Shown here: positions 3,001 through 53,831 of the stretch, in pieces
Numbering within the stretch: position 1 is the first letter of the stretch
Layout of the letters: each line of letters begins with the position of its first letter
Origin: Candidatus Curtissbacteria bacterium
GTDB taxonomy: Bacteria > Patescibacteriota > Microgenomatia > Curtissbacterales > GWA2-41-24
Length of the DNA: 53,831 bases
Reading direction: 5' to 3'
NCBI GenBank assembly: GCA_016183325.1
Contig: JACPEV010000019.1
Span: forward strand, 1 to 53,831
The notes under the pieces: model-generated
The model's database searches: none
What the model was told of the DNA's origin: nothing
The model's input: the letters and a program-made list of their open reading frames with translations, nothing else
Made by a program: the position numbers and the translations under genes

Positions 3001-4350
3001 CTTGATCAGGCCGGTGCATCTGTATTTTGCGTGACTGATGGGACGAGCGTTAGCGGAAATTGCAAGATTGCCTATGGAGATGATATGGATACAACACCGC
3101 TTTTAAAAGTGATTGATTGTACGAATGATACAGATTGTTCAACGAATACCTCAGGTACTGTTGACACCAATTTGGGAAACGCAGCATCTGTTCTTCATAC
3201 TTCAATTGATTGCCCGGCAGATGACGATTGCAAAATTACCTATAACGATACAGGGTTATCAGACTTTTTCTTTGTTGATTGTTCAACTATTGCTTGTTCA
3301 ACCGGGAATACGGTTACCCAAATTGATAGCGCTTCAGGTACTGCCCCAAGAAGTGACCTGGATTGCTCTGCCGGTGCTGACAACTGTAAATTTGTGTACA
3401 ATGACGCTAATGCGACCGGAGGGTGCGCAGACGCAGATTCTATTTGTTTTGTAGATTGTTCGGCTGCGGAATGTGGGACAGGCAGGACTTTAACAGTTGT
3501 TGATGTAGATGCTGGAGTAACAAATAATGCATCGCCAGTAAGCATTGATTGCGTTGGTGGAGACACTGACTGTAAACTTGTTTATGGCGATGGAACTGAT
3601 GAGGCCATGTACTTTGTTGATTGTGGAGACGCAACCTGTACTGTTGCTAACGCTACAATTCAATCAATTGATAACACAGTCGCAGGCGCAAACACTTCAC
3701 GTAGTTTTGGTGCTGCTATGGATTGCACTCCTGGTGTGGCTGATTGTAAAATTGTTTATCCTGATGATACGGGAAATTCTGTTATCTCTTTTGCCGACTG
3801 TGATGATGCTACCTGCTCTCCCATAGGCTCAACAGAGGTTATACCTGGAGCAAGATTTAATGGAACAATCCAATGCTTGACAACTGCTAATTGTAAGCTA
3901 GCCTACTATGATGGAACTGCCGAAACCGATCCAACAGTCCAATTTTTAGATTGTGACGTAGCAGATTGTCTTCCTTCCGCAACTTCTCTGACAGCTCCAT
4001 GGACAGGACAAACAAATGTTACTTCTGTGTCTTTGTCTCTTGATACAACGAATAACGCGCTTTATGCAAATATTTTAAAAGACACTTCAGAGCAAGCATA
4101 CTTTAAATCAACAGATAAGTCTACGATTTCATGGAGCGCTGAAACATCCTACGCCTTTACAGCCGGGGATCTAGGCCATATCTCGACGCCCGAGAAAGGA
4201 GCAGGTACCACTCAAATTGGAGCGGTGTTGAGACAAGGCGCCAATTTTGAGTTTGCCGTGGTACCAGAGAGGATATGGTTTTTAATGGGAGTATTACCCT
4301 TCTTACCGAGATTATTTAAGAAGATGAAAAGTAGGAGGCGTAATTTATGA
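1..4350 (+). CDS. 5'-truncated processive family-2 glycosyltransferase (cellulose/chitin/hyaluronan-synthase-like) continuing in one ORF into TM segments, a ~1000-aa Cys-rich repeat ectodomain and a VPE-TM-basic C-terminal tail
   Basis: Frame is open to the window edge (no stop in 1-18). ITEDFELTLRL (TED) and QRMRWAEG (QxxRW) motifs. Hydrophobic helices follow the GT core. Signal-anchor-like LALGVIISITVLLSLFAPLMTATTSYAAD. Seven tandem 4-Cys repeats. Tail AVVPERIWFLMGVLPFLPRLFKKMKSRRRNL*. Confidence 0.7.
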   Translation, partial: NSSTSEVKAASTSEVSLGGGHIAAVQGYQWHVLNKSQTWVTRGVRTEYAGSYVIERSGCEIYGGLKQIAGSVYGIRADVLRKFGWGTSITEDFELTLRLYEAGYKVAFTPYIQTPAEAVSTIKRLIRQRMRWAEGASFNVKIMLPRILFGRWVEAEQLMVDDGSLKVDNPASTFQHQNPPSSFHPLSSKVWVPSKLTLAEKLEFIYLAPYYLQAAFFVVGTICWFLSEAVFGARLPFWTAAFGWSLVFTNLLALPLMNIIGLFLEESDERDYVGILSFVALSYIVVPFQAYAAIKGFLEREEGPWFRTPKTGLVTDVIKRGRFHRLIAGILGKPEPAAAQFLIPNYSNYSNQIPNPNDQDNLGQLGIRSIRSISHPYLSLATAHNRFQNFQIRPRHIRWVGNLALGVIISITVLLSLFAPLMTATTSYAADPILRTVSDSQKEVDRAKIDQGTEDGGEKGEEITTPRAISKTTKGGKKLEFIFHEEARVRVKLEHREIEFETEKVFGQRVNPKRSRIKADKEVVYEEIIPGIDLKYSITNDLLVEEVILKTPDAAAHLGGVPQAQHHLRGGNASEVSIIQTLRTVDVKVVSPDPGAFGFFADDGKELFRFGAPFAKDAGGAVSNDLSFTLDKPFDFAQGYRLTKTLGESAKTWLTDPQRAYPVSIDPSVIVSGGIVETETQFGGLQRKIVYMSGANGGAAWYAFYNDGADVFYKRCLESSACDEAADWSAAQDLDTGDADNYNPTIAVSGNFIVVFWIDLSANAYEGRRFDVSTAFAHTLGTLCTSASLGTLSSTFMVSVALLDNDTGYVAYSDTSSDTEFGVELFFTLSGICTTASANFAGLTITNDSRLTAGDRPVLVPINSTGVDMIFQDGDLSYSRLHDVNWSRQNITIASVTDNIYSVTTDGTTVWILTVSGTTATNMYKCCTADIVETQVDSDAGATGHDSISDIDMFCVAADDCKIVYTDDIDTTPTLIFVDCNDEDCSTKTVTTLDADIGDSLDQAGASVFCVTDGTSVSGNCKIAYGDDMDTTPLLKVIDCTNDTDCSTNTSGTVDTNLGNAASVLHTSIDCPADDDCKITYNDTGLSDFFFVDCSTIACSTGNTVTQIDSASGTAPRSDLDCSAGADNCKFVYNDANATGGCADADSICFVDCSAAECGTGRTLTVVDVDAGVTNNASPVSIDCVGGDTDCKLVYGDGTDEAMYFVDCGDATCTVANATIQSIDNTVAGANTSRSFGAAMDCTPGVADCKIVYPDDTGNSVISFADCDDATCSPIGSTEVIPGARFNGTIQCLTTANCKLAYYDGTAETDPTVQFLDCDVADCLPSATSLTAPWTGQTNVTSVSLSLDTTNNALYANILKDTSEQAYFKSTDKSTISWSAETSYAFTAGDLGHISTPEKGAGTTQIGAVLRQGANFEFAVVPERIWFLMGVLPFLPRLFKKMKSRRRNL
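9..45. repeat. two 13-nt GC-rich palindromic units CACCTC(C/G)GAGGTG in frame in the CDS
   Basis: cacctccgaggtg at 9-21 and cacctcggaggtg at 33-45, both preceded by cctc. The same units recur at 1669-1728. Confidence 0.85.
477..563. repeat. AT-rich imperfect palindrome lying in frame inside the GT2 domain
   Basis: GATGATGGAAGCTTGAAGGTAGAT (481-504) matches the reverse complement of 533-563 (GATGATAGAGGATGGAAACTGGAGGGTGGAT). Word content resembles the 7585-7719 palindrome. It adds about 35 aa after the QxxRW motif. Confidence 0.5.
1669..1728. repeat. cluster of CACCTC(C/G)GAGGTG palindromic units in frame in the CDS
   Basis: cacctcggaggtg at 1669-1681, ccacctccgaggtgg at 1698-1712, half unit catcggaggtg at 1718-1728. 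Encodes HLGGVPQAQHHLRGGNASEVS. Confidence 0.85.
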
Positions 4351-6992: not shown

Positions 6993-7601
6993 ATGAATTC
7001 ACCAATGCGCCAATTTGTCGATAAAGTCCCCTCTGTTTCTAAAGATACCTTCGTTACCCTCTTTTTAATTCTCGTTCTTCTGTTGATGTTTTTTCCCTTC
7101 ATGGCCACGTTTAATGATCTTTTGACGAGAATTGTCATTAACTTCAAGGGCTATTGGTTTATTCGAGAGGTGATTGTGCCTTTTGAGGTAAGGGTGGTTG
7201 CTGTGGTTTTGGCGGCGATGGGTTTTGATGTTGGAGTCACGAAGGAGTATGTGGTTTTGGGAACTTCTGCGCCGTTTATTGCAGAGATTGTTTGGAACTG
7301 CATTGGTTGGCAGTCGATACTGTTTTTTGCTATTACAGCTTTTGTCGGCTTGCAGGGAGATAAATACACGAATTTTTCGAAAGCAAAGGCACTGGTGATC
7401 GGAGCGCTGGGGACATTTTTAATTAATATTTTGCGGATTGTCGTGGTTGTGATCTCTGCCTATTACTTTGGACAGCTACCGGCGACAATTATCCACGATT
7501 ATGGATCGATTTTGGCATTTATTGCTTGGCTCTTTTTCTTTTGGTGGTTTAGTTATGCTTTTGTGCTGGAACAGGCAGAGACTGTAGATGGTAGAAAGTA
7601 G
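6993..7601 (+). CDS. exosortase/archaeosortase-family transpeptidase-like membrane protein
   Basis: Polytopic 202-aa protein. Family-typical Cys/Arg/His constellation: VWNCIGWQS (C-x-G), NILRIVVVV (N-x-x-R), IIHDYGS (H). Trp/Phe-rich last helix WLFFFWWF. Confidence 0.65.
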   Translation: MNSPMRQFVDKVPSVSKDTFVTLFLILVLLLMFFPFMATFNDLLTRIVINFKGYWFIREVIVPFEVRVVAVVLAAMGFDVGVTKEYVVLGTSAPFIAEIVWNCIGWQSILFFAITAFVGLQGDKYTNFSKAKALVIGALGTFLINILRIVVVVISAYYFGQLPATIIHDYGSILAFIAWLFFFWWFSYAFVLEQAETVDGRK

Positions 7602-7667
7602 AAGATAGGAGAATGAGAATAGAGAATGGAAGTTAGATAGAAATAAGTGGAAAACGTTTTGATAATT
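7526..7667. repeat. 142-bp direct repeat, copy 1 (last 24 codons + stop of the exosortase gene plus 66 bp downstream)
   Basis: Read base by base as identical to 10928-11069. Confidence 0.9.
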
Positions 7668-7719
7668 CTATCTTCTAGCTTCCATTTTCAAAAATCAATC
7701 TTCTATTGTCTAGCATCTA
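7585..7719. repeat. AT-rich imperfect palindrome (~135 bp) overlapping the last codons and stop of the exosortase gene
   Basis: Left arm TAGATGGTAGAAAGTAGAAGATAGGAGAATGAGAATAGAGAATGGAAGTTAGATAGAA. Reverse complement of right arm TAGATGCTAGACAATAGAAGATTGATTTTTGAAAATGGAAGCTAGAAGATAGAA. Confidence 0.7.
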
Positions 7720-7729
7720 TTGTCGTTCC

Positions 7730-7792
7730 TCGTACAGTTTCGTGCTGGAAGAGAGAAAGCCTGTAGTTGAAAAGGAAGTTATTAAGGTCTGA
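7730..7792 (+). pseudogene. displaced remnant of an exosortase gene 3' end
   Basis: Translates SYSFVLEERKPVVEKEVIKV*. Compare the live end SYAFVLEQAETVDGRK*. Confidence 0.55.
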
Positions 7793-7821
7793 GTCTCGCC
7801 CCGTAGACACGATACCGCGAC

Positions 7822-9201
7822 TTAAAGAAGACAAGCTGGAACTGAATATATTTTCGTCTTTTTCTTGGAGATCACCCCTGCCTCTTGCCAGTTGACAATC
7901 AGGCTTAAAGAGGGGTCGTAGGCGTCAAGAAAACTCAAGAGAGAGCGGCTGATTTTAGGGGTTTTCTTGACATCGACGGGGATGATTTTTTCTTTTAGTA
8001 CAAAATCAACTTCCGCTTTTGCAGTAGTCCGCCAAAAGGCAAGGGGTTCATGCTTTAAAACCAGAAAAGTATAGTTTTCTAAAAGTTGGCCAAGTTCAAT
8101 GTCGTCGAAGTCAAACTTATGCAAAAGAGCGTTTCTTAATCCTAAATCAAAAAAGTAATATTTAGGGTTCTTTTTTAACTCTGTAACCAGATTTCTATGA
8201 AAAGGGTTGATTTTGCCTACCACATAGGTTTGTTCAAGAATAGAGAGAATACTTTTTAGCTCTTTGAAATAAACTGATGCAAATTGTCCTAAGTCGTTAA
8301 AGTTAACAACCGACCCTGAAGTTTCCGCCAGGTATTTAAGAACCAGCAAGACTTTCTCTTTGTCTTTAATGCCATATAGCCTTGATATGTCCTTTTCAAT
8401 ATATGTAGTAAAGATATTATTAAGAAGAACCTTCTTTTTTCCCTCTTCATTTTCTTTTACCACTGCTGGGTAGCCCCCAAAAGTCAGGTATTGTTTTAGG
8501 AAGTTAGAAAGCTCGATTTTGAAAAGTGAATCGGCAAGACCCGGCTTTTGAAAAGAAAATTTGCGGGCTTGATATTCTTGGTACAATCTTTTGTCTTTCG
8601 AACGCATCACCTCGGCAAATGATAGCGGATAAAGCTCAAAAAAGAGGGCTCTACCAACCAGATATGCTCCAAGTTGGGCAAGATCAAGAGTGGATGAACC
8701 TGAAATGACAAACTTGACTTGGGGATAGGTGTCATAAAGAAGTTTTAGGACCTGACCGCCATTTTTTATGTATTGGGCTTCGTCGATGAAGAAAAATAGT
8801 TTATCCGCCTTCGCAGAAAACCACGATCGTGAGATCGTGGATGAATGCGAAGCATTTTCCGCTTCGGCGGGATTTCGCTCCCGACGAAGCGAGCGGAGAA
8901 GATACCCCGTGCGTAAGCTCGGGGGAGCTTCATCTTTGTCCCGCAGGTAAAATTCAAGATATTGTTTGGGATTTTTCTCGATCTTTTGCTTTTCTAGTTC
9001 GTCTTCTAGATTCACGAATTCGAAGTGTGCCGTTGGTGATTTTTTCTGCAAAGACATTGCTATCTTGGCCAATAGGGTTGTTTTGCCGCTTTGTCTTGGA
9101 CCGCGAACAACTATAATTTCTCGGTTATCAAGAAAATCGAAAATCGTTTTTTCTAGATCTCTTTCAATGTAATCTTTAGGAATAAAGCTATTTAAATTCA
9201 T
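7822..9201 (-). CDS. AAA+ ATPase of the AAA_14/DUF4143 (COG1373) type carrying an extra ~40-aa GC-rich insert
   Basis: Walker A GPRQSGKTT and Walker B FFFIDEAQ. C-terminal ...ENYTFLVLKH...FWRTTAKAEVDFVL is typical of DUF4143. The insert between the Walker motifs is encoded by 8806-8932. Confidence 0.8.
   Translation of the reverse strand: MNLNSFIPKDYIERDLEKTIFDFLDNREIIVVRGPRQSGKTTLLAKIAMSLQKKSPTAHFEFVNLEDELEKQKIEKNPKQYLEFYLRDKDEAPPSLRTGYLLRSLRRERNPAEAENASHSSTISRSWFSAKADKLFFFIDEAQYIKNGGQVLKLLYDTYPQVKFVISGSSTLDLAQLGAYLVGRALFFELYPLSFAEVMRSKDKRLYQEYQARKFSFQKPGLADSLFKIELSNFLKQYLTFGGYPAVVKENEEGKKKVLLNNIFTTYIEKDISRLYGIKDKEKVLLVLKYLAETSGSVVNFNDLGQFASVYFKELKSILSILEQTYVVGKINPFHRNLVTELKKNPKYYFFDLGLRNALLHKFDFDDIELGQLLENYTFLVLKHEPLAFWRTTAKAEVDFVLKEKIIPVDVKKTPKISRSLLSFLDAYDPSLSLIVNWQEAGVISKKKTKIYSVPACLL
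8806..8932. repeat. GC-rich hairpin-rich segment inserted in frame in the ATPase gene
   Basis: Hairpins ccacgatcgtgagatcgtgg (8821-8840), cgcttcggcg (8860-8869, UUCG loop) and gctcgggggagc (8917-8928). Much higher GC than the flanking CDS. Confidence 0.6.
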
Positions 9202-9247
9202 ATCTTTTCAATATTAATAGCATTGAAATTGAAAGTCAAGAAGAGCA

Positions 9248-9433
9248 ATATATTTTTCAGGTGTCTCAACTTGGCACGTCTCAACAATTGTCGCTCGGAT
9301 AGGTCACGACTATTTTGCGGCATTTCTAACCCTTATTTGGCTCTTTTTCTTCTGGTGGTTCTCGTATAGTTTCGTGTTGGAGGAGAAAAGGGTAGACTTA
9401 GGAACTAAGGATTCAGCTCGACCTGTCGGTTGA
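9248..9433 (+). pseudogene. ~60-codon remnant of a diverged exosortase gene 3' end
   Basis: Translates ...YFSGVSTWHVSTIVARIGHDYFAAFLTLIWLFFFWWFSYSFVLEEKRVDLGTKDSARPVG*. It aligns to the live gene from YYFGQLPATIIHDYGSILAFIAWLFFFWWFSYAFVLEQ. Nucleotide differences are mostly synonymous. Confidence 0.7.
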
Positions 9434-9617
9434 GTTTTGGTCCCCGCACAGACCTTACTTGCTCCCCGGGTTACCATACGGTACCCGGCGTCGCAAGGGC
9501 GGTTATGCGGGGCAAGCCCCAAAGTATACTTACCTCCTCCCGAGGTCTACGGGAAACCACGTGGGGTATCCCACTGTGGCGTCCTCGCGTCGGAGGAGCG
9601 TAACTTCGGGGCAAGGG
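9434..9617. other. GC-rich, highly base-paired ~185-nt segment (candidate structured RNA or non-autonomous element)
   Basis: Nested complementary pairs: 9442-9448/9506-9512 (CCCCGCA/TGCGGGG), hairpin 9466-9488, 9533-9540/9592-9598 (CCTCCTCC/GGAGGAG), 9541-9545/9583-9587, hairpin 9557-9579. Flanked by TTCTCGTATAGTTTCGTG (9359-9376) and TTTTCGTATAGTTTTGTG (9618-9635). Confidence 0.4.
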
Positions 9618-9709
9618 TTTTCGTATAGTTTTGTGGGGTTGACAAACAACCCATGCTTACTTAGACTGATAGTAAGATAATTTCTTACTAATAGTTTACA
9701 ATTGTGCCT

Positions 9710-10237
9710 ATGAAGCGAAGCTTGATTCTTACTCTTTATCAGTCAAAGAGAACTGTTTTTACTCTCAATGAAATAGCCTTAATAACCGGTGAACTTAATA
9801 GGAATAACCTAAAGGCAAGGCTTCACTATTATGTAAGACGCGGCTTGTTGAGAAATGTAAGAAAAGGGATATACGTCAAGGAGGAGTACGAGCCTTTTGA
9901 ACTCGCTACCAAGATATATACTCCTTCTTATATCTCTCTTGAGTCTGTTCTTGAAAAAGAGGGGGTCATCTTCCAACATTATTCGACAATTTTCGTGGTG
10001 AGCTACTTGACGCGGAAAGTGTTGGTCGACGGCTTGGAAATCCAATATAGGAAAATCAAAGAAAGGTTACTTCTTGACTCTCAAGGAATCATCAACTTGG
10101 TGAGTTACTCAATTGCATCGCCTGAGAGGGCCTATTTAGATGCCCTGTATCTTTACCATAATTATCATTTTGACAATCTTGAGGCTTTAGATAAGAAAAA
10201 GATTGAAGAACTAAAGACCCTATACAAAAATGATTGA
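9710..10237 (+). CDS. abiEi: AbiEi-family antitoxin/transcriptional regulator
   Basis: N-terminal wHTH-like VFTLNEIALITGELNRNNLKARLHYYVRRGLLRNVRKGIY. 8-nt overlap with the downstream AbiEii gene. An alternative GTG start lies at 9704. Confidence 0.7.
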   Translation: MKRSLILTLYQSKRTVFTLNEIALITGELNRNNLKARLHYYVRRGLLRNVRKGIYVKEEYEPFELATKIYTPSYISLESVLEKEGVIFQHYSTIFVVSYLTRKVLVDGLEIQYRKIKERLLLDSQGIINLVSYSIASPERAYLDALYLYHNYHFDNLEALDKKKIEELKTLYKND

Positions 10238-10922
10238 CGTTGACAAACATAAGTTTATCCTAATCCAAATCTTAAAAGACATTTATACAGATAAGGACTT
10301 AGGACCAATTCTTGGGTTCAAAGGAGGTTCGGCAGTTTACCTTTTTTATAATCTTCCAAGATTCTCCGTCGATTTAGATTTTAGTCTTTTGAATGAACGC
10401 AAAAAGAAAGTGGTTTTTGAGAAAGTTAAAGAGATTCTTGTCAGGCACGGAAGATTGAAAGAAGTTAGAGAAAAGAGGTTCACACTTTTTTACCTTCTTT
10501 CTTATGACGAAAAATTAGCAAATATAAAAGTTGAAATTTCCAAAAGAAAATTTCCTGACCAGTATGAGGTTTTGAACTATCTCGGAATCCCAATGCTGGT
10601 TATGAAGAGGGAGGATATGGTCGCCCACAAATTGGTGACTCTTCTTGAGCGAAAAGAAATTGCCAATCGAGACCTTTTTGATCTTTGGTACTTTTTGAGT
10701 CATAAATTTCCCATAAACCGCGAGTTAGTTGAGTTTAGAACCAGGGAAAAATTCGATGAGTACTTTAATAAGTGCATAAAGGTGATTGAGAGGGTAGATG
10801 CGAGGTACATTCTACAAGGATTAGGAGAAATTCTGGATGATAGACAAAAAGCCTGGGTTAGACAAAATCTTAAAAAGGAGCTTCTATTTTTAATGAAATT
10901 TTACCTGACTCAGTCGGCCTAA
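10230..10922 (+). CDS. abiEii: AbiEii/AbiGii-family nucleotidyltransferase toxin (DUF1814)
   Basis: LGFKGGSAVYLFYNLPRFSVDLDFS matches the GG(T/S)AL...RFSxDLDF signature. Size and partner gene fit the family. Confidence 0.8.
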   Translation: MIDVDKHKFILIQILKDIYTDKDLGPILGFKGGSAVYLFYNLPRFSVDLDFSLLNERKKKVVFEKVKEILVRHGRLKEVREKRFTLFYLLSYDEKLANIKVEISKRKFPDQYEVLNYLGIPMLVMKREDMVAHKLVTLLERKEIANRDLFDLWYFLSHKFPINRELVEFRTREKFDEYFNKCIKVIERVDARYILQGLGEILDDRQKAWVRQNLKKELLFLMKFYLTQSA

Positions 10923-10927
10923 CCGGT

Positions 10928-11069
10928 TTGGCTCTTTTTCTTTTGGTGGTTTAGTTATGCTTTTGTGCTGGAACAGGCAGAGACTGTAGATGGTAGAAAG
11001 TAGAAGATAGGAGAATGAGAATAGAGAATGGAAGTTAGATAGAAATAAGTGGAAAACGTTTTGATAATT
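10928..11069. repeat. 142-bp direct repeat, copy 2
   Basis: Identical to 7526-7667. Begins 6 bp after the AbiEii stop. Confidence 0.9.
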
Positions 11070-11071
11070 TG

Positions 11072-11101
11072 GGCAGTTTTGTGTTGGAAGAGAGATTGTA
11101 A
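11072..11101 (+). pseudogene. short displaced remnant of exosortase gene end
   Basis: Translates GSFVLEERL*. Directly abuts repeat copy 2. Confidence 0.45.
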
Positions 11102-11206
11102 TGTTGATAATGCGAATTAATACGAGTTAGAACGACGTGTAGCATTTTTTGATTCCGATGGCACATTGGTCGTTCTCGCGAATTTATGCGAATAGTAACA
11201 AGTTCC

Positions 11207-11320
11207 TTACTTTTTCTTTCTGAGAAGGGTGGGGAGAGCGACTAAGACTAATGCTAATAAGAGAATTGCTCCTGTGAGATAGAACTGAACTAGTACGATA
11301 TCGGTTTGGTTAAAATTCAT
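11207..11320 (-). CDS. possible 37-aa single-TM peptide translationally coupled to the upstream small ORF
   Basis: My own translation: MNFNQTDIVLVQFYLTGAILLLALVLVALPTLLRKKK*. ATGA start/stop overlap with 11317-11523. Below the ORF-track size cutoff. Confidence 0.3.
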   Translation of the reverse strand: MNFNQTDIVLVQFYLTGAILLLALVLVALPTLLRKKK

Positions 11321-11722: not shown

Positions 11723-13597
11723 ATGATATATCCGGCTCAGACTTCTCTTATTCCAGTAACAGTTGCTTTGGCAAAGTGGGTTGAGGCGCATGGATTTGGT
11801 GGACTTTATCCCTATTGGTATTTAGGGACGACGCCGGTGAAATATCTAATTGGGCCGGTTGTGCCTTCGATTTTGGTGGGGCTTCATAAGATTTTGCCGC
11901 AATCATCTTATTTTGATTTGTCCATTTACTATTTACTATTTTCTATTTTCTTTTCTTCTGTCGGTTGGGGAGTGCTGGTCTGGAAATTGTCAGGGAGTAG
12001 GGTGATGGGGGTGATAGGGGCAGTAGGGGTATTTTTGATGCCGTGGCATTGGGTGAGCGCCTTAGCGTTATCAGAATTGTCGGCGGTTGCGGCGGGAGCG
12101 CTGACGCCGTGGGTGTTATGGATGTTTGCCAGGTATCAAGAGGCTCGGGGTCCTGCCCGCGACAGTTCGTCAGAAGGTAAAGGTAAGGAAGCCCGTATCG
12201 ATATGGATGTAGGTGTGAGTGTCGCAGCCCGTATGGGTGTTGGTCAACGTCAAACGTTAAACGAAAACGAAACTGGCAGCGACAACCCAAAACGACAACC
12301 AAACCCAAACAGGCATCCTAACCTTAACCTAACTACTATTGTTCCAGTTGCTTTCGCTTTTGCTTTGTTGCTTTTAACAAATGCTGTTGCTTCGATTCCT
12401 GCTGTAGTGGGAATGGGGATACTTTCAATTTTCAATTTTCAATTTTCAATTTTCAATTTAAGAGTAGAAGACAGGTTAAAAAGATTGGGATTGGTGATTT
12501 TAGGCGGCGGGTTAATCGCCACTCTTTGGTATGGGCCAGGTTATTGGTGGACAATCGCAACTTCACCCTCAATAGGTGGCAGGCCGGCGGTGAGTGCTTT
12601 TGTTAACTTAATAAACCTTATGAGAGGGTTTGTACCAGTTATTTTGGCCGTAGTTTTGGTATTTTGGGGATTGCGGCCTAAAGGAGTTTATCAAAAGTTT
12701 ACCTATATGTGGCTTTCAATTTTCGGACTATTGACTCTTTTTAGGTTTATGGCCGATTTCGATTTTTGGACGGACTGGACGGCGTGGGTAGGGGAAGTGG
12801 AGGTAGGCTTGGCGCTTTTAGCAAGCACAAGAATTTCAAATGTCAAATTTCAAATAACTCGGGGTCCTGTCGGCAGCTCGTCCCACTCGACGTCCTCGGT
12901 CAATTCTAGCTCGAAACATGATCGTAACCATACCTTTGACCTGCGGGCGCTCAGCGGGACCCCCTCCGCTGCCGCCACCCCTCGCGGAGTTTATCCTGAG
13001 CTCGTCGAAGGGTCATATTTCTTACGGTGGCTACCTTCGCTCCTTGACACGAAGAAAACTATTTACCTTTTACTCTTTACAATTTACCTTCTCGTCGGCT
13101 GGTTTTTAGCTTATCAGCATCGGGATTTTTGGCTGCCACGGACAGATATTGAGAATACTGTGGAATATAGGATTGCAAAATGGCTGGAGGGTAATGCAAC
13201 GGGTCCTGTCAGTCGAGACAGTGGGGGAAATTGGGGAAGTATGGGGAGTTTGGGGAAACGGTCTCTTGTTTTCCTTTCCGGAACGACGGCTTTTTGGTTG
13301 AATAGCTTTGTGGATATTGCCCAAGTGCGCGGCGGAGTCGATCAGGCGTCGGTTGATCCTTCGACAGGCTCAGGATGGCGACAGGCAGCCTGGGAGATTA
13401 GGGAAGGTGTGATCACAGAAGGCACAGAAAGAACTCTGAAGGCACTGAGAATTAATTATATTGTCGTCCACACGCAGGCTTCAAGCGAGTTTTATCATGA
13501 TTTTGTCTATAGCGCAATTTTTGAGAAAGCGCCGTATTTGCAGAAAGTATATGATGATGCGGGAGACAGGATATATAAAGTAACAATTGACAATTGA
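11723..13597 (+). CDS. polytopic membrane protein related to the YfhO-like GT-C paralogs, riddled with in-frame repeat insertions
   Basis: Shares YWYLGTTPVKYLIGP (W-x-x-G-x-P) and ...FWLNSFVDIAQVRGGVD... with the 24440, 28813 and 32715 proteins. Contains three GC-rich inserts and a heptad array without losing frame. Confidence 0.6.
   Translation: MIYPAQTSLIPVTVALAKWVEAHGFGGLYPYWYLGTTPVKYLIGPVVPSILVGLHKILPQSSYFDLSIYYLLFSIFFSSVGWGVLVWKLSGSRVMGVIGAVGVFLMPWHWVSALALSELSAVAAGALTPWVLWMFARYQEARGPARDSSSEGKGKEARIDMDVGVSVAARMGVGQRQTLNENETGSDNPKRQPNPNRHPNLNLTTIVPVAFAFALLLLTNAVASIPAVVGMGILSIFNFQFSIFNLRVEDRLKRLGLVILGGGLIATLWYGPGYWWTIATSPSIGGRPAVSAFVNLINLMRGFVPVILAVVLVFWGLRPKGVYQKFTYMWLSIFGLLTLFRFMADFDFWTDWTAWVGEVEVGLALLASTRISNVKFQITRGPVGSSSHSTSSVNSSSKHDRNHTFDLRALSGTPSAAATPRGVYPELVEGSYFLRWLPSLLDTKKTIYLLLFTIYLLVGWFLAYQHRDFWLPRTDIENTVEYRIAKWLEGNATGPVSRDSGGNWGSMGSLGKRSLVFLSGTTAFWLNSFVDIAQVRGGVDQASVDPSTGSGWRQAAWEIREGVITEGTERTLKALRINYIVVHTQASSEFYHDFVYSAIFEKAPYLQKVYDDAGDRIYKVTIDN
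12423..12457. repeat. 5 x TTTCAAT tandem heptamer inside the CDS
   Basis: tttcaat repeated five times exactly. Encodes SIFNFQFSIFN. Confidence 0.95.
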
Positions 13598-20218: not shown

Positions 20219-20488
20219 ATGAAACAAACACACATCATCTCTGACCCAAAAGTCTTAGGTGGAAAGCCAGTTATTTCTGGTACTAGAATTTCAGTGGAGT
20301 TAATTTTAGATAGAGTAGCTTCTGGGATGAGTGTCAAAGAGATTTTAAAAGATTATCCGCATTTAACAGCCAAACAGGTTCAGGCAGCCTTATCTTATGC
20401 CAGAAGCTTAGTTATTAAAAAGTCCCCCCGTTCTAAAATGGATCAGCCAGAACCCACTACCCTATATACTCATGAAATTTCTCGCTGA
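20219..20488 (+). CDS. DUF433-family antitoxin-like protein
   Basis: ISDPKVLGGKPVISGTRISVELILDRVASGMSVKEILKDYPHLTAKQVQAALSYA is the classic DUF433 pattern. Confidence 0.85.
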   Translation: MKQTHIISDPKVLGGKPVISGTRISVELILDRVASGMSVKEILKDYPHLTAKQVQAALSYARSLVIKKSPRSKMDQPEPTTLYTHEISR

Positions 20489-20816
20489 TGAGGATTTCCC
20501 CAAGCCTTTAGTGGCAAAAATCCAAAAGCTAGGTCATTCGGTTAAAACTATTCAGCAGAAGAATCTTCAAGGATCATCAGATGAAACAGTTGCCTCTCTT
20601 GCTTTAAAAGAAAAGAGGGTTGTATTGACCTTTGATAAAGACTTCCTCAAAAATCAACCTAAGAACTTACAAGTTGTTATCTTTCATTATCCTAAAAAGC
20701 CAACTTCTGAAATTACTCCATTCATTGAAAGCTTCTTAGAAGAATTACAAATGATTAAATTCTCTAAAGGTAAAATTTTACAGTTTAGTAAAAATGGATT
20801 GGAAAAACAGAAGTAG
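20472..20816 (+). CDS. DUF5615-family PIN-like toxin candidate
   Basis: MKFLADEDFPKPLVAKIQKLGHSV N-terminus. 17-nt overlap with the DUF433 gene. Confidence 0.75.
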   Translation: MKFLADEDFPKPLVAKIQKLGHSVKTIQQKNLQGSSDETVASLALKEKRVVLTFDKDFLKNQPKNLQVVIFHYPKKPTSEITPFIESFLEELQMIKFSKGKILQFSKNGLEKQK

Positions 20817-50312: not shown

Positions 50313-50870
50313 ATGAATACAAGACTTATTAGAACTCCAATTAGCGATCTTTTCGAAGTGGAGATCGATTACTTTCAAGACGAACGGGGGTTTTTTATGG
50401 AGTCGTGGAACCAGCAAGAATTCGCCAAAGCTGGCCTTGATCTGACTTTTGTCCAAGACTCACTTTCGGGATCAAAGTCTGGGGTTTTGCGGGGTTTGCA
50501 TTTTCAAGATAAGCGAGCACCGCTTTCAAAGCTAGTGCGTTGCAGTCAGGGCAAGGTGTTTGACGTGGCGGTTGATATGAGAAAATCATCTAGGACATTC
50601 GGGAGATGGTTCGGAGTAGAGTTGTCTGGCGATAACAAGAAACAGCTTTATATTCCGGCGGGGTTTGCCCATGGATATCAAGTTTTGTCCGACTGGGCAG
50701 AGGTTTTCTACAAACAGACAGAATATTGGAATGCTGAGGCAGAAGTGACCTTGATTTGGAACGATCCGGACGTGGGAATTATTTGGCCGATTGCTGATCC
50801 GATTCTTTCTGATCGCGATGCTCGCGGCATCAGTTTTGCAACTTACCTCAAAAACCCGGCATTTACCTAA
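50313..50870 (+). CDS. rfbC: dTDP-4-dehydrorhamnose 3,5-epimerase
   Basis: FQDERGFFMESW, LRGLHFQ, KLVRCSQGKVFDVAVDMR, QLYIPAGFAHGYQVLS. I prefer the internal ATG (MNTRLIRTPI...) over the track start at 50274. Confidence 0.9.
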   Translation: MNTRLIRTPISDLFEVEIDYFQDERGFFMESWNQQEFAKAGLDLTFVQDSLSGSKSGVLRGLHFQDKRAPLSKLVRCSQGKVFDVAVDMRKSSRTFGRWFGVELSGDNKKQLYIPAGFAHGYQVLSDWAEVFYKQTEYWNAEAEVTLIWNDPDVGIIWPIADPILSDRDARGISFATYLKNPAFT

Positions 50871-50874
50871 AGTT

Positions 50875-50907
50875 GATGCGGCCGATTTTGGAAAGAAGGG
50901 GATTTAG
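50875..50907. repeat. cassette-junction core repeat, copy 1
   Basis: GATGCGGCCGATTTTGGAAAGAAGGGGATTTAG, 5 bp after the rfbC stop. Confidence 0.85.
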
Positions 50908-50953
50908 GCTGCGTCTTGACCGATGACATCAAATACCCTAAAATGGGTAGTAT

Positions 50954-51247
50954 ATGAATCAAATACGTTTGCAGAAAACGCCCGAAATAGAAAAAGTATT
51001 GGCGTATCTTCGCAGTAAGTATAACGTGCTCTCCGAAGCTGAAATTCTGAAACTGGCATTATCTGAAAAGTATTATCGAGAAATAAGCAGTGTTGAGACC
51101 GAACAGCAGCTCAGAAAATTGTATCGAGATCTTAAAAGTGAAGGTAAAAAGCTTGGTGATAAGCTTCTTGCAAAAAAAGGCCTAAAAAGAAAAAATGTGA
51201 GCGAGGCGGAATTTTACAGTAAGGTCATTGAACCCGATAATGCTTAA
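50954..51247 (+). CDS. small antitoxin-like protein partnered with the PIN gene
   Basis: 97 aa. 20-nt overlap with the downstream PIN ORF. No motif recognised. Confidence 0.5.
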   Translation: MNQIRLQKTPEIEKVLAYLRSKYNVLSEAEILKLALSEKYYREISSVETEQQLRKLYRDLKSEGKKLGDKLLAKKGLKRKNVSEAEFYSKVIEPDNA

Positions 51248-51656
51248 GGTCGTACTAGATACAAACATGTATCTATCAGCACTTTTGTACGGCGGCATGG
51301 CGGAGAAAATCTTAGACCTTGTTGCTGATAGTAAACTTGAACTTCTTGTTTCACCTGAACTCATCGCTGAAGTACTAAGAAAATTTCAAGAAAAAGGAGC
51401 GAATGAAAGTATGCTTCAGAGGATTAATGTATTTCTTGATTACAAAGGGAATATGGTTATACCTAAAGTAAAAATTAATATTTGTCGTGACCCGAATGAT
51501 AATTTTCTTTTAGAGCTATCACAAACTGCAGAGGCAGATTACTTGGTCAGTCGGGATAAAGATCTTTTGGAGCTGCCTAATCATAAGTGGAAGAAAACAA
51601 AAATTTTAACACCGGAAGAATTTTTGCCAATATTGCGTTTGCAGAAAATCATTTGA
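51228..51656 (+). CDS. PIN-domain toxin (TIGR00305/PIN_3-like)
   Basis: VVLDTNMYLSALLYGG...SPELIAEVLRKF...DPNDNFLLELSQTAEADYLVSRDKDLLEL. Confidence 0.8.
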   Translation: MNPIMLKVVLDTNMYLSALLYGGMAEKILDLVADSKLELLVSPELIAEVLRKFQEKGANESMLQRINVFLDYKGNMVIPKVKINICRDPNDNFLLELSQTAEADYLVSRDKDLLELPNHKWKKTKILTPEEFLPILRLQKII

Positions 51657-51672
51657 TTTAACAAAATTGTTT

Positions 51673-51734
51673 CCCTTTGAGATCAGTTTTCACCCCACAA
51701 ATTAGAGCGGACGATTTTGGAGAAGGGGATTTAG
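51673..51734. repeat. orphan DUF2283 3' end (PFEISFHPTN*) plus junction core repeat, copy 2
   Basis: ccc ttt gag atc agt ttt cac ccc aca aat tag (51673-51705), then AGCGGACGATTTTGGAGAAGGGGATTTAG (51706-51734). Confidence 0.85.
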
Positions 51735-51770
51735 TAATTTGGACATATAATGCACTGGGGCTTTTGAAGG

Positions 51771-51884
51771 GTAACTACTCAGTCTCTTTGACAAACTTTT
51801 ATTGTTCGAGCGTAAGCGAGAACTTCTCACTTCGCCTTTCAGGCTCGTTCGAAGAATATTGTGTCAAGAACTGTGAGTAGTTAC
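51771..51884. mobile_element. 114-bp MITE with perfect 11-bp TIRs and 8-bp target-site duplication
   Basis: TIRs GTAACTACTCA (51771-51781) / TGAGTAGTTAC (51874-51884). TTTGAAGG occurs at 51763-51770 and 51885-51892. Confidence 0.8.
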
Positions 51885-51922
51885 TTTGAAGGTGAGCGCC
51901 TTGCAGTTTTTGAAGCTGAAAA

Positions 51923-51946
51923 CTTTAATGATTTAAATCATTAAAG
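51923..51946. repeat. perfect 24-bp palindrome
   Basis: CTTTAATGATTTAAATCATTAAAG. Confidence 0.9.
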
Positions 51947-51994
51947 AGAGGATGAGAGAAAAGGAAAGATCTTTGAAAGTAGCGCGTGCTTTAC

Positions 51995-52056
51995 AGATAT
52001 TTAGCCACAAAAAAGGCTACGAAGTGGGAGGATTTGAAGAGGAGGCCGAGAAATTC
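51995..52056. repeat. second junction block, displaced copy
   Basis: AGATATTTAGCC...CGAAGTGGGAGGATTTGAAGAGGAGGCCGAGAAATTC. Compare 52689-52755. Confidence 0.75.
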
Positions 52057-52176
52057 TAAAGGGTGTTTGTGGATGAGAGCTGGTTTTTTGAATAGAACAT
52101 TCTCAAAGCTAGTTTGACTGAAGATAGTTTCGGTTCGGTAAAGATAAGATATGATATGAATGAATGATATTAAATT

Positions 52177-52428
52177 GTGAAATACAAAACCATTCTCGAG
52201 AAAACTGTTGAGCTTACACAAGAAAGAAAAAGGCACATTTTTGAGCGACATCCGGATGAAATCAGAATCGATAAACTGGATAAAAATGTGTTGCTCTTTT
52301 ACAGGTACTTTAGTAAAATTGGCAATGGTAAGTATCTTGTTGTGGCGATTAAGATGAATGAAAGAAATTTCATTTTGACGTTTTTCTCAACTTACAGAAT
52401 TAAAACAGGAGAAAAATATGAGTTCTAA
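52177..52428 (+). CDS. small toxin-like protein (ExxRxxHIxxRHP motif), partner of the DUF2283 gene
   Basis: LTQERKRHIFERHPDE. GTG start. 11-nt overlap with the downstream gene. Confidence 0.45.
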   Translation: MKYKTILEKTVELTQERKRHIFERHPDEIRIDKLDKNVLLFYRYFSKIGNGKYLVVAIKMNERNFILTFFSTYRIKTGEKYEF

Positions 52429-52660
52429 GAATCAACTAAATTATCTTTATGACCAGGAAGCTGATGTTCTTTATATTTCAAAAGGCAAACCTTCGGCAAA
52501 AGACGTATCTGACGAAATCGACGATGGAGTTGTGGCACGTTTAGATCCTAAAACAAAAGAGATTAGAGGCTTAACTATCATAAGTTTTGCGGCGAGAACT
52601 AAGTCGAAAACCACGGCAGTAAAACTTCCGTTTGAAATTAGCTTTCATCCTACAAATTAG
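52418..52660 (+). CDS. DUF2283-family protein (antitoxin-like)
   Basis: LYDQEADVLYISKGKP...VVARLDPKTKEIRGLTIISF follows the YDxEADxLYI pattern. Confidence 0.8.
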   Translation: MSSKNQLNYLYDQEADVLYISKGKPSAKDVSDEIDDGVVARLDPKTKEIRGLTIISFAARTKSKTTAVKLPFEISFHPTN

Positions 52661-52755
52661 CGGGCGATTTTGCCAGAAGGGGATTTAGAGATATTTGGCG
52701 GCAACAAATGCAGCGAAGTGGGAGGATTTGAGAAGGAGGAGAGAGCTAGAAATTC
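52661..52755. repeat. junction core repeat copy 3 plus contiguous second junction block
   Basis: CGGGCGATTTTGCCAGAAGGGGATTTAG (52661-52688), then AGATATTTGGCGGCAACAAATGCAGCGAAGTGGGAGGATTTGAGAAGGAGGAGAGAGCTAGAAATTC (52689-52755). Confidence 0.85.
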
Positions 52756-52849
52756 GAAAATTGTAGTTCGATTTCACTCACTACTATAGTCAGTTCGACA
52801 TGCTCACTGCTATAGCCCATCATTTGAGCCCTGAATAGCCAAACAGCGT

Positions 52850-53110
52850 TTATGTCTCTAGCCCTTTATGCAAAATTTGACGCATGAGGGTTTGGTAGGG
52901 GATGTGCAACTTTTCTGCTTTTTGTTTTGCTTTCTGTATAAGAGATTCCTCTACTCGCAATGAGATTAAGCGCTTTGTTGGTTTTAAATTGGGAAAGCTG
53001 ACCTTCTTAAAGTCAGATGGTTCAAGATACTTTGAAAAGTCGGTTTTATCTACCCACTTTCTTACTTCATCTTCATTTTTGAAATTAGGCCACTTTAAGG
53101 GTTTTTTCAT
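52850..53110 (-). CDS. brnA: BrnA-family antitoxin
   Basis: ...LISLRVEESLIQKAKQKAEKLHIPYQTLMRQILHKGL is a CopG/RHH-like C-terminus typical of BrnA. Confidence 0.8.
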   Translation of the reverse strand: MKKPLKWPNFKNEDEVRKWVDKTDFSKYLEPSDFKKVSFPNLKPTKRLISLRVEESLIQKAKQKAEKLHIPYQTLMRQILHKGLET

Positions 53111-53408
53111 ATAATCTCGCCTCCTTTCTGTTCATAGGTCTTGCCGAGATAGGTCGTATTTTTTGCTGCTTATCTATTGTGCGTATAGTAAATGCGATAA
53201 TCAGTTTTCTTCCCTCACTTGTTTCGCTATACATAAGGAACCGTCTTTCAAACTGAGAGTGCTTTTTATCTTCGATAAGAATTTTTTTCTTAGTAAAAAA
53301 TGCTTGCTCTTGCTCATTTGTTGACACTTTGTGTTTTACCCAACTTTTTGTACTATTTCCCTTATCCCACTCAAATGTCAAAACATCAGGTAAAATTGTG
53401 TCTTCCAC
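53085..53408 (-). CDS. brnT: BrnT-family ribonuclease toxin (DUF497)
   Basis: FEWDKGNSTKSWVKHKVS...DKKHSQFERRFLMYS...IRPISARPMNRKEARLYE. Confidence 0.85.
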   Translation of the reverse strand: MEDTILPDVLTFEWDKGNSTKSWVKHKVSTNEQEQAFFTKKKILIEDKKHSQFERRFLMYSETSEGRKLIIAFTIRTIDKQQKIRPISARPMNRKEARLYEKTLKVA

Positions 53409-53507
53409 GTATATACGATGTAGTTACATTCTACTGTTTATATTCATCTTTGTCAAGGCTGGCCTGGCTGTTTTTTGGAAGAAAACTAGATTTATGCTAG
53501 CAGAAAC

Positions 53508-53538
53508 GATGCGGCCGATTTTGGAGAAAGGGATTTAG
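53508..53538. repeat. junction core repeat, copy 4
   Basis: GATGCGGCCGATTTTGGAGAAAGGGATTTAG. Confidence 0.85.
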
Positions 53539-53581
53539 AAAGCTGTGATTGATCTTCTGTGCAAAAGTTTGGACTCGATTT

Positions 53582-53734
53582 GGTGACAATTCAAAACGAT
53601 CGTTTCATTTTGTCACCGTATCTTTCTCTATAATTGTTCGCAAGTACCACGGGTTTTTACCCGTGGGTGAATTGAACAATTACGTACTCGCCGAAGGCGT
53701 AGCCTGAGGATACCATGACTGTTAAGTCGTGGTA
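53582..53734. repeat. cluster of hairpins in an ORF-free cassette slot
   Basis: GGTGACAA...TTGTCACC (53582-53616). Nested AATTGTTC..CCACGGGTTTTTACCCGTGG..GAACAATT (53632-53681). TACCATGACTGTTAAGTCGTGGTA (53711-53734). Confidence 0.7.
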
Positions 53735-53774
53735 GTTCATATTTCTTCTATAACTTTCACCTGTTTATAAAAAG

Positions 53775-53831
53775 AAAACCACGGCAGTAAAACTTCCTTT
53801 TGAAATTAGCTTTCACCCTGCAAATTAGCGG
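53775..53831. repeat. orphan DUF2283 3' end (KTTAVKLPFEISFHPAN*) with the start of a fifth junction core at the window edge
   Basis: 57 nt with 3 mismatches relative to 52607-52663. The window ends at ...TAGCGG. Confidence 0.85.

Follow-up and report, generated by a model that had tools for sequence, protein, structure and literature searches.

Displaced exosortase gene ends at an insertion hotspot for toxin-antitoxin and defence cassettes in Microgenomates

How does a gene come to be trailed by several copies of its own 3' end, with small selfish operons lodged between them? The question is raised by a 53,831-nt stretch of Candidatus Curtissbacteria DNA (contig JACPEV010000019.1, 0 N; referred to as the window), in which a gene of the exosortase/archaeosortase family is followed by a 3.4-kb islet that carries a DUF4143 ATPase gene and an AbiE module and is bounded by two identical copies of the gene end. 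The pile-up of gene ends and of toxin-antitoxin (TA) or defence cassettes at this position is a real and lineage-wide insertion hotspot; it is little described, and a literature search found no description of it. The initial annotation of the window had proposed that elements entering at the 3' end of the gene push older ends distally, and this accretion model is largely supported.

The exosortase gene end and its displaced copies

The target gene (6993..7601, plus strand) encodes a protein of 202 amino acids that clears the curated threshold of the TIGR04178 signature (38.8 against 23 bits), upholding the family assignment made initially, and that scores below the cut-off of Pfam PF09721 (22.2 against 25.7); an exact look-up of the product returned no record. 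In translation the live gene end reads WLFFFWWFSYAFVLEQAETVDGRK, with the stop at 7601. The part that recurs downstream is a block made up of the last 17 codons ahead of a variable tail (WLFFFWWFSYAFVLEQA, 7527-7577, plus strand). This C-terminal 17-mer, WLFFFWWFSYSFVLEEK, hardly varies among 85 full genes that share 36-84% overall identity with the query, and at the DNA level the block of about 50 bp (TGG YTN TTY TTY TTY TGG TGG TTY ... GTN YTN GAR GAR) is almost invariant across Microgenomates. It lies at the border between the conserved gene and a dispensable spacer. In the window and in all homologues the block is also an imperfect DNA palindrome with a 9-12-bp stem and a 27-nt loop, in which the codons for LFFF (CTN TTY TTY TTY) approximate the reverse complement of those for EEK or EER (GAR GAR ARR).

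The perfect direct repeat of 142 bp reported by the initial annotation is exact at both positions: copy 1 (7526..7667) and copy 2 (10928..11069), both on the plus strand, are identical at 142 of 142 nt with a spacing of 3402, and no third copy was found within the 53.8-kb window. Copy 1 comprises the gene end and 66 nt of 3' untranslated region, which is lineage-specific non-coding DNA, and copy 2 starts right after the terminator-like hairpin of AbiEii. The bounds assigned to the repeat proved too narrow, as it continues past 142 bp in an alignment of 7526-7756 with 10928-11095. The extended unit U1 (7526..7756) consists of the gene end, its tail and the core of the next remnant, whereas its distal counterpart U2 (10928..11095) lacks 63/64 nt (7668-7731) and then matches U1 at 22 of 24 positions (CAGTTTyGTGyTGGAAGAGAGA); imperfect non-coding similarity extends beyond the perfect part. 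An AT-rich terminator-like hairpin (GGAAGTTAGATAGAA..TTCTATCTTCTAGCTTCC, 7630..7690, plus strand), read from the sequence as an inverted repeat, is complete after copy 1 only, and copy 2 stops in the hairpin loop.

Four further in-frame copies of the gene end had been listed, and every peptide was reproduced by translation; all lie on the plus strand. Remnant 2 (7727..7792) reads SYSFVLEERKPVVEKEVIKV up to its stop; remnant 3 (9248..9433) is an open frame ending in IGHDYFAAFLTLIWLFFFWWFSYSFVLEEKRVDLGTKDSARPVG and a stop; remnant 4 (9618..9635) reads FSYSFV and is cut short at its 3' end, where the AbiE promoter region begins; and remnant 6 (11072..11101), the most distal, reads GSFVLEERL before the stop and shares 90% identity with remnant 2 across 21 nt. 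The length of about 60 codons given for remnant 3 holds for its open frame of 61 codons, but only about the last 45 of these (from IGHDY) resemble the gene, and they are homologous to a different exosortase allele of the HDYFAA type. A comparison of the 17 codons of the live end with 9338-9388 yields eight identical, six synonymous and three replacement codons, with a Ser AGT/TCG difference included; two of the replacements fall within the first 16 codons, which agrees with the mostly synonymous divergence and two replacements noted initially.

Gene-end arrays and their cargo in related loci

The gene has 316 exosortase homologues in Microgenomates of the candidate phyla radiation (CPR), for example in Curtiss-, Levy-, Woese-, Davies-, Gottesman- and Chisholmbacteria. 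We fetched 122 related loci, which together with the window gave 91 non-redundant sequences (labelled L###), and searched them with a position-specific scoring matrix (PSSM) of the 17 C-terminal residues that was trained on the 85 full genes and applied at a threshold of at least 20 bits. The matrix hit the gene strand 167 times and the opposite strand twice, and the gene-end copies are therefore more than chance matches. Extra copies, which do not form the end of a full gene, are present in about 38 of the 91 loci, a count that includes a few split copies or genes cut by contig ends; a full gene lies upstream of nearly all of them, arrays contain up to five, and they are in direct orientation throughout. 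The 56 intervals between copies fall into two size classes, one of about 100-230 bp of non-coding DNA and one of 0.5-2.8 kb with one to three genes. The latter cassettes are single operons with their own promoter-like sites, in either orientation. Several of the loci (among them L005, L007, L014, L015 and L017) belong to third-party annotation records of metagenome-assembled genomes (MAGs) titled 'uncultured Gammaproteobacteria bacterium', yet they carry a Microgenomates-type locus at 55-80% amino acid identity, and these labels are almost certainly wrong.

The presence or absence of the insert at the exosortase 3' flank of relatives had been named beforehand as a check. The right-hand backbone of the locus is a conserved gene for a polytopic membrane protein (11723..13597, plus strand), which abuts the exosortase gene at empty sites. 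In 15 loci the exosortase gene and the homologue of this membrane protein are syntenic, with a spacer that varies from -4 bp to 5.5 kb, and the number of remnants grows with spacer length, from none at spacers of up to 608 bp to five in the window. The closest relative, L005 (80% amino acid identity), has an empty site with a spacer of -4 bp. The initial reading of an integrative-element footprint thus holds in that insertions recur at the 3' end of the gene and displaced ends accumulate there; the inserted units are single-operon cassettes of 0.5-2.8 kb and not classical integrative elements.

Homology between related contigs breaks at the gene-end copies, and copy-to-copy recombination therefore seems to reshuffle the loci. 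The pairs L067 and L119 (around 5740-5770 of L119), L050 and L054, and L116 and L119 share 99-100% identity upstream, which is lost at a gene-end copy or right beside one; behind one of the paralogues of L054 comes the DNA that in L050 lies downstream of the other paralogue. Where cargo is common to loci at 85-92% nucleotide identity, the alignment covers the open reading frames (ORFs) only, so that cassette boundaries are not definable from it. A long direct repeat was also seen in L131 (57-339 and 2306-2649), a contig binned as Omnitrophota, in which the gene end and about 200 nt of downstream DNA are 81-91% identical over 150-290 nt and bracket a single gene for a 627-aa PQQ beta-propeller protein.

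The remnants are the ends of once-functional, diverged (foreign) alleles, as had been proposed, since a Ser switch between AGT and TCG cannot come from neutral decay of a local duplicate. Aligned with the resident gene ends, 46 remnants (526 codons) show 256 identical, 157 synonymous and 113 replacement codons, and switches among the six-fold Ser codons are present. This ratio is biased, because the PSSM picks protein-like copies, but the high-scoring copies with multi-nucleotide synonymous switches are still decisive. Position by position, the nucleotide profile of the remnants equals that of live genes, with third codon positions equally free, and it reveals no DNA-level conservation in the remnants beyond the coding constraint. 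Copies within one array are on average 75% identical, compared with 69% for random pairs between loci, and their median longest exact match is about 11 nt. Tails after ..VLEE are common to live ends and remnants of different genomes: KPVVEKEVIKV forms the tail of a remnant in the window and in L121, and the similar KPIVQVKAIKV is the live end of L040. The 5' ends of the remnants range from 97 codons upstream of the first tryptophan codon of the block (W1) to 11 codons inside the block; many begin at W1 or a few nt before it, and most have at most 17 codons, although long remnants of 45-105 codons occur in L035, L080, L102 and, as remnant 3, in the window.

The cargo between the repeats of the window consists of two units. 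The DUF4143/AAA_14 ATPase cassette (7822..9201, minus strand) was confirmed by Pfam and is a PDC-S01 candidate in PADLOC; a promoter-like site lies at 9239-9211. The AbiE module (9637..10927, plus strand), whose bounds were set by comparison with L139, L140 and L141, opens with a promoter-like TTGACA-17-TAGACT found by promoter scan (9639-9667) and encodes AbiEi (9704-10237; PADLOC, 6e-62) and AbiEii (10230-10922; PADLOC, 5.4e-78; Pfam PF08843, 3.5e-21). Both annotations had been made initially. The adjacency of AbiEi and AbiEii, with an overlap at 10230-10237, places the pair among the AbiE type IV toxin-antitoxin/abortive infection systems. A hairpin after AbiEii (10912-10928, plus strand) scores as terminator-like together with the T-run of the block. 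The term 'defence islet' is apt for AbiE, a known system, whereas the ATPase is a candidate only and carries an in-frame insertion of a hairpin element. The closest relatives of the AbiE pair (74-78% amino acid identity) again lie downstream of exosortase genes, in L139 and L141. L141 keeps the 3' end of a hairpin element and a full gene end, FSYSYFLEERTT with its stop, followed by the same AbiE promoter, and the module of L139 has no gene-end copy on either side. AbiEii, used as a single-protein query against genome contigs, returned 0 loci.

Among the related arrays, the DUF4143 ATPases form the largest cargo cluster, with nine cassettes in both orientations and 26-33% mutual identity, and AbiEi/AbiEii accounts for four; other cargo includes HicA/HicB, HEPN with MNT, Fic, NYN, DUF3800, 23S-rRNA-IVP, PIN and a few non-defence genes. 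These assignments rest on a Pfam check of about 20 representatives, the remaining cassette ORFs being grouped by similarity only. In a survey of 150 ORFs of at least 140 aa within 7 kb of about 35 arrays, the commonest families were AbiEii (seven), exosortase (seven) and DUF4143 (six). Of the 16 DUF4143 genes in 802 kb, 13 have a gene-end copy no more than 260 bp away, again in both orientations.

Possible origins of the arrays

For the islet, we tentatively favour Campbell-type, homology-driven recombination at the gene-end block. DNA circles carrying the block together with a small selfish operon (toxin-antitoxin, Abi or DUF4143 ATPase) would recombine with the resident block, and a single Campbell-type crossover would leave the gene with an intact end and displace the other copy downstream. 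Such circles could be excised array segments or circularised foreign fragments, and repeated events, along with whole-block transfers, would give rise to cassette arrays separated by gene-end remnants. The last event in the window, which produced the 3.4-kb islet, may have been RecA-type homologous recombination or gene conversion over the 142-230 bp of gene end, tail and next remnant, and the same repeats could now delete or re-insert the 3.4-kb block. We infer both the circular intermediate and the enzyme, host RecA.

Several features argue for homology as the driver. The perfect repeat of 142 nt, which runs on to about 230/168 nt in the two extended units, exceeds what an attachment (att) core needs, and the repeat of L131 likewise runs into non-coding DNA, there around a non-defence gene. 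The 66 nt of non-coding DNA in the repeat fit homologous recombination or duplication better than a replacement end borne by an attP site, which had been the initial proposal. Breakpoints are scattered and not fixed: in L121 the copies agree at 98% as far as F8 of the block and differ from there on, the cut in L119 follows W6, the divergence between L067 and L119 sets in immediately before W1, and the repeat of the window begins at W1. In addition, the remnants show only the conservation imposed by coding, no recombinase is encoded in cis, the homology of related contigs breaks at gene-end copies, and the closest relative is empty. In L121 and L087, the copies that flank one cassette share a 33-nt hairpin insertion (98% identity over 54 nt, diverged from codon S9, and 91% over 85 nt, respectively), and the flanking copies must therefore have been copied from or recombined with each other over at least 54-85 nt.

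Other observations weigh against this reading. Most pairs within an array, at the identity and exact-match length given above, are a poor substrate for RecA because the copies have diverged, and their synonymous-type differences are older than the insertion; homology-driven recombination then needs the extra assumption that old remnants arrived within larger imported blocks, or that infrequent recombination over short homology is enough. A second cassette array in the window has a non-coding site of 28-31 bp between TA cassettes, which is too short for homologous recombination and suggestive of a site-specific system in this organism. The assembled contigs and Logan unitigs provided no circular form, no donor and no read of an empty site.

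The main rival, which we regard as possible though on the unlikely side, is a recombinase in trans, by which an unlinked host or helper enzyme would use the gene-end block as its attachment site, in the manner of an integron or a cis-mobilizable element (CIME). The small single-operon cassettes, with a conserved site of about 50 bp between them that is always in direct orientation, are what such an enzyme would produce, and it would best explain the identity of about 75% and the pre-existing synonymous divergence if it tolerated sequence variation; yet the remnants are conserved no further than coding requires, and the flanking repeats of recent events reach far into non-coding DNA. Many remnants begin at W1 or a few nt before it. 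Nevertheless, neither a fixed crossover point nor an extra DNA-level site signal was found in the window and the related loci, and inspection by eye showed no core with dyad symmetry: the motif AGTTTYGTG is common to the copies of the window, and breakpoints elsewhere fall before W1, after W6 and after F8. The second array, with its short non-coding site, speaks for an enzyme, and accretion of decayed, integrase-less elements at gene 3' ends offers a precedent (PMC5704250). No phage or plasmid carrying the att site emerged from IMG/VR, either in a protein search or with a degenerate DNA pattern of the site.

Nor did a recombinase emerge. None is encoded between the repeats, as noted initially, and the search of the rest of the contig that had been named as a check detected no recombinase or transposase among the ORFs of at least 110 aa in the 53.8-kb window. 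Recombinase families were also absent from the roughly 20 cargo representatives examined with Pfam, and none was recurrent among the 150 neighbouring ORFs. The locus thus shares with CIME accretion an intact gene whose 3' end flanks the insert as a direct repeat, and differs from it in that the element, the window, the cassette ORFs checked and the neighbours yielded no integrase. As for integrons, the exosortase gene itself lies upstream of the array in place of IntI and attI, with no family of the Phage_integrase type recurrent nearby, and in place of a structured attC there recurs a coding block in which third positions are free; the cassettes have promoter-like sites and lie in both orientations. 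Integron core motifs (RYYYAAC/GTTRRRY) occur in a 7-bp hairpin at some tails and were judged too degenerate and too short. Xer/dif integration, as used by integrative mobile elements exploiting Xer (IMEX), was ruled out by a GC skew that is uniformly positive across the window, which is therefore not a terminus or dif region, and by several paralogous sites per genome. More doubtful still is a general in-trans cassette platform of Microgenomates analogous to the integron, in which the att sites for promoter-bearing TA and defence cassettes would be the last 50 bp or so of the exosortase gene and also the 28-bp site after rfbC, and the enzyme would be unlinked or conceivably DUF4143. An unknown recombinase of this kind would represent a new cassette-capture system outside the integron paradigm.

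It is improbable that the perfect repeat pair of the window is an assembly path through a mixed population, composed of an empty-site chromosome and a circular or alternative form, in which case no single molecule would have a copy on each side of the islet. Both configurations give the same de Bruijn graph, and Logan unitigs (k=31) that originate from two further sequencing runs and match 9551-10957 and 9798-10957 at 100% identity both end exactly 30 nt inside copy 2, where the graph branches. The same unitigs reproduce the junction 10927/10928 in independent runs, however, and the 53.8-kb contig passes through both copies with no N. Moreover, copy 2 lacks 63 nt and is followed by a different diverged remnant, and equivalent arrays exist in dozens of independent assemblies. 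A caution on perfect repeats in MAGs comes from L038, where a perfect 55-nt gene-end duplicate (3068-3122 and 3223-3277) merely flanks a run of N and is a scaffolding artefact. If true, the assembly-path explanation would itself be evidence of excision.

We give equally little credence to the possibility that the remnants are tandem exosortase paralogues that decayed through 5' deletions and between which selfish genes settled. Two full paralogues do lie near each other in many genomes (L004, L032, L047, L085, L110 and L119), and the longest remnants would suit such a history; most remnants, however, are too short for it, with up to five in one array, and the many starts within a few nt of W1 are not expected of random deletions. 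Tail types common to live ends and remnants of different genomes, and a window pair that is identical including the non-coding tail, also disagree with local decay. Finally, it is very improbable that the DUF4143 ATPase is the mobility factor, cutting the block in a homing-type reaction and being copied in by repair while TA cassettes hitch-hike, for although it is the commonest cargo, lies close to gene-end copies in either orientation and presumably has a C-terminal domain with a nuclease-like fold (predicted only), many arrays have no DUF4143 gene, the copy in the window has a 45-residue insertion in its ATPase domain, the enrichment may only mirror the abundance of the family in CPR accessory DNA, and we know of no nuclease activity or target of DUF4143.

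Accretion at protein-gene 3' ends has been described for ICESt1/ICESt3 at fda of Streptococcus thermophilus and for SGI1 at trmE, where the gene end is restored and both tandem stacking and integrase-less derivatives occur (PMC5704250, PMC3234194, PMC8409611). The locus studied here has in common with these elements and with CIMEs the intact target gene, the direct att repeats, the decayed elements without integrase and the tandem stacking. ICESt1/3 and SGI1, in contrast, have or recently had a tyrosine integrase and a short defined core and measure 10-100 kb, whereas the present units measure 0.1-2.8 kb, no integrase was seen in about 38 arrays, and the repeat ends vary. In the tycheposons of Prochlorococcus, successive integrations push older elements inwards and leave partial target copies between them (10.1101/2020.12.28.424599); stacked insertions, partial target copies and adaptive or defence cargo recur here, but tycheposons target tRNA genes and encode tyrosine recombinases and replication modules, and our locus has a protein-coding end as its target and no mobility genes. 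Hotspots flanked by core genes in E. coli and Pseudomonas have variable defence and TA content, often without mobility genes, and recombination in the flanking sequence is held responsible for their turnover (PMC10121019, PMC10250203); the accumulated flanking-gene ends that mark the exosortase locus are not known from such hotspots. Integron arrays resemble it in their small single-operon cassettes, many of them toxin-antitoxin modules, in the recurring site and in cassettes that lack a recombinase; they differ by IntI, attI and a structured attC, in place of which the exosortase locus has a site in coding sequence with no IntI or attI adjoining, and cassettes with their own promoters in both orientations. 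Phage 21 and e14 in icd of E. coli, the classical precedent for displacing a protein-gene end, bring an alternative 3' end, and the displaced native pseudo-end differs mostly synonymously; each is a single prophage with its own integrase, in contrast to arrays of cassette-sized units. Distinct from these systems are the cassette-sized units, the lack of a mobility gene across dozens of arrays, the ultra-conserved coding target and the CPR host.

CPR bacteria (Patescibacteria) are thought to be streamlined and to have few classical mobile elements, and their acquisition of defence and TA genes is poorly understood. The locus provides a concrete and recurrent acquisition site, easy to recognise by the additional WLFFFWWFSYSFVLEEK copies that follow the exosortase gene, and each displaced end is a dated insertion footprint with the allele of an earlier host or donor. 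Catalogues of CPR accessory cassettes can be drawn up from the site, gene flow between lineages can be traced with it, and it can serve to test short ultra-conserved coding blocks as homology anchors against an unknown recombinase.

Hairpin elements and the second array of the window

The 'GC-rich structured segment' of the initial annotation is real and structured, and it consists of two tandem hairpin elements (9442-9516 and 9517-9616, plus strand) apparently inserted in one gene-end copy; it is a secondary palindromic parasite of the gene-end block. The elements belong to a family of about 70-100 nt with the pattern CCCGCC..CTTAC..stem..GGCGGGCARGG, each copy of which folds as one long hairpin (z scores of -0.9 to -4.6, and of -4.4 and -4.6 for the two copies in the window, from per-sequence folds). 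At least 10 loci contain members of the family; their precise insertions fall at three positions of the block and, in two cases, outside it. Within the block, the insertion points (marked ^) are TGGCTCTTTT^TCTTC, TTCTTC^TGGTGG, which is used by the 33-nt variant, and TTCTGGT^GGTTT. Insertions in gene-end copies, without duplication, occur in L003, L010, L062, L065, L089 and L118, the clearest case being L089, in which an otherwise complete block is split by a hairpin element. By analogy, the hairpins of the window apparently sit inside gene-end copy 4 at TTYTGGT^GGTTT. Short, non-coding, multicopy and precisely inserted at different sites, the hairpins qualify as palindromic elements similar to miniature inverted-repeat transposable elements (MITEs) or repetitive extragenic palindromic (REP) sequences. 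The idea of a guide or bridge-type RNA joined to its target was dropped, because the homologous elements are precise insertions at three different block positions. An Rfam search gave no gathering-score hits in the window and chance-level hits only in 7500-11300, and a scan of the window found no tRNA or tmRNA.

A further GC-rich, multi-hairpin insertion (8806..8945) lies in frame in the ATPase gene, where it accounts for about 45 residues without counterpart in four homologues and falls between the Walker A and Walker B regions. Similar GC-rich stretches occur at 12000-12300 and 12800-13000 inside the membrane-protein gene 11723-13597, and these in-gene hairpins may be likened to the Rickettsia palindromic elements. 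Hairpins of a related type, CCACGATC..GATCGTGG, were seen in the ATPase insertion and in L043. In L001 (10570-11300) and also in L002, a Y1 (PF01797) transposase gene directly follows the exosortase stop; the gene of L001 is flanked and internally marked by hairpins of the CACGATCCCGTATCGTG type, like an element encoding a REP-associated tyrosine transposase (RAYT).

As a whole, the window represents a glycan-biosynthesis cluster in which toxin-antitoxin genes are dispersed, and its ORFs without a Pfam match mainly encode polytopic membrane proteins. Isolated toxin genes of the cluster are located at 20472-20816 (DUF5615/PIN_10), without a flanking gene-end duplication, and at 51228-51656 (PIN_3). 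The second cassette array (50870-53831) is built on a 28-31-bp non-coding site, GCGGNCGATTTTGGAGAAGGGGATTTAG, at 50880, 51707, 52661 and 53511, with probably another copy just past the end of the window. A scan of genome contigs for the 28-bp site gave no hits, nor does the site occur in any other locus fetched. In the window, about 10 nt separate the rfbC stop from the start of the first copy, and the TA cassettes lying between the sites comprise an ORF for a putative antitoxin with PIN_3, a DUF2283 pair, and BrnT with CopG/BrnA on the minus strand. Ahead of three of the GCGGNCGATTTTGGAGAAGGGGATTTAG sites stand gene-end copies reading PFEISFHP(T/A)N before the stop, of which the first two differ synonymously only and the third has one replacement (T to A).

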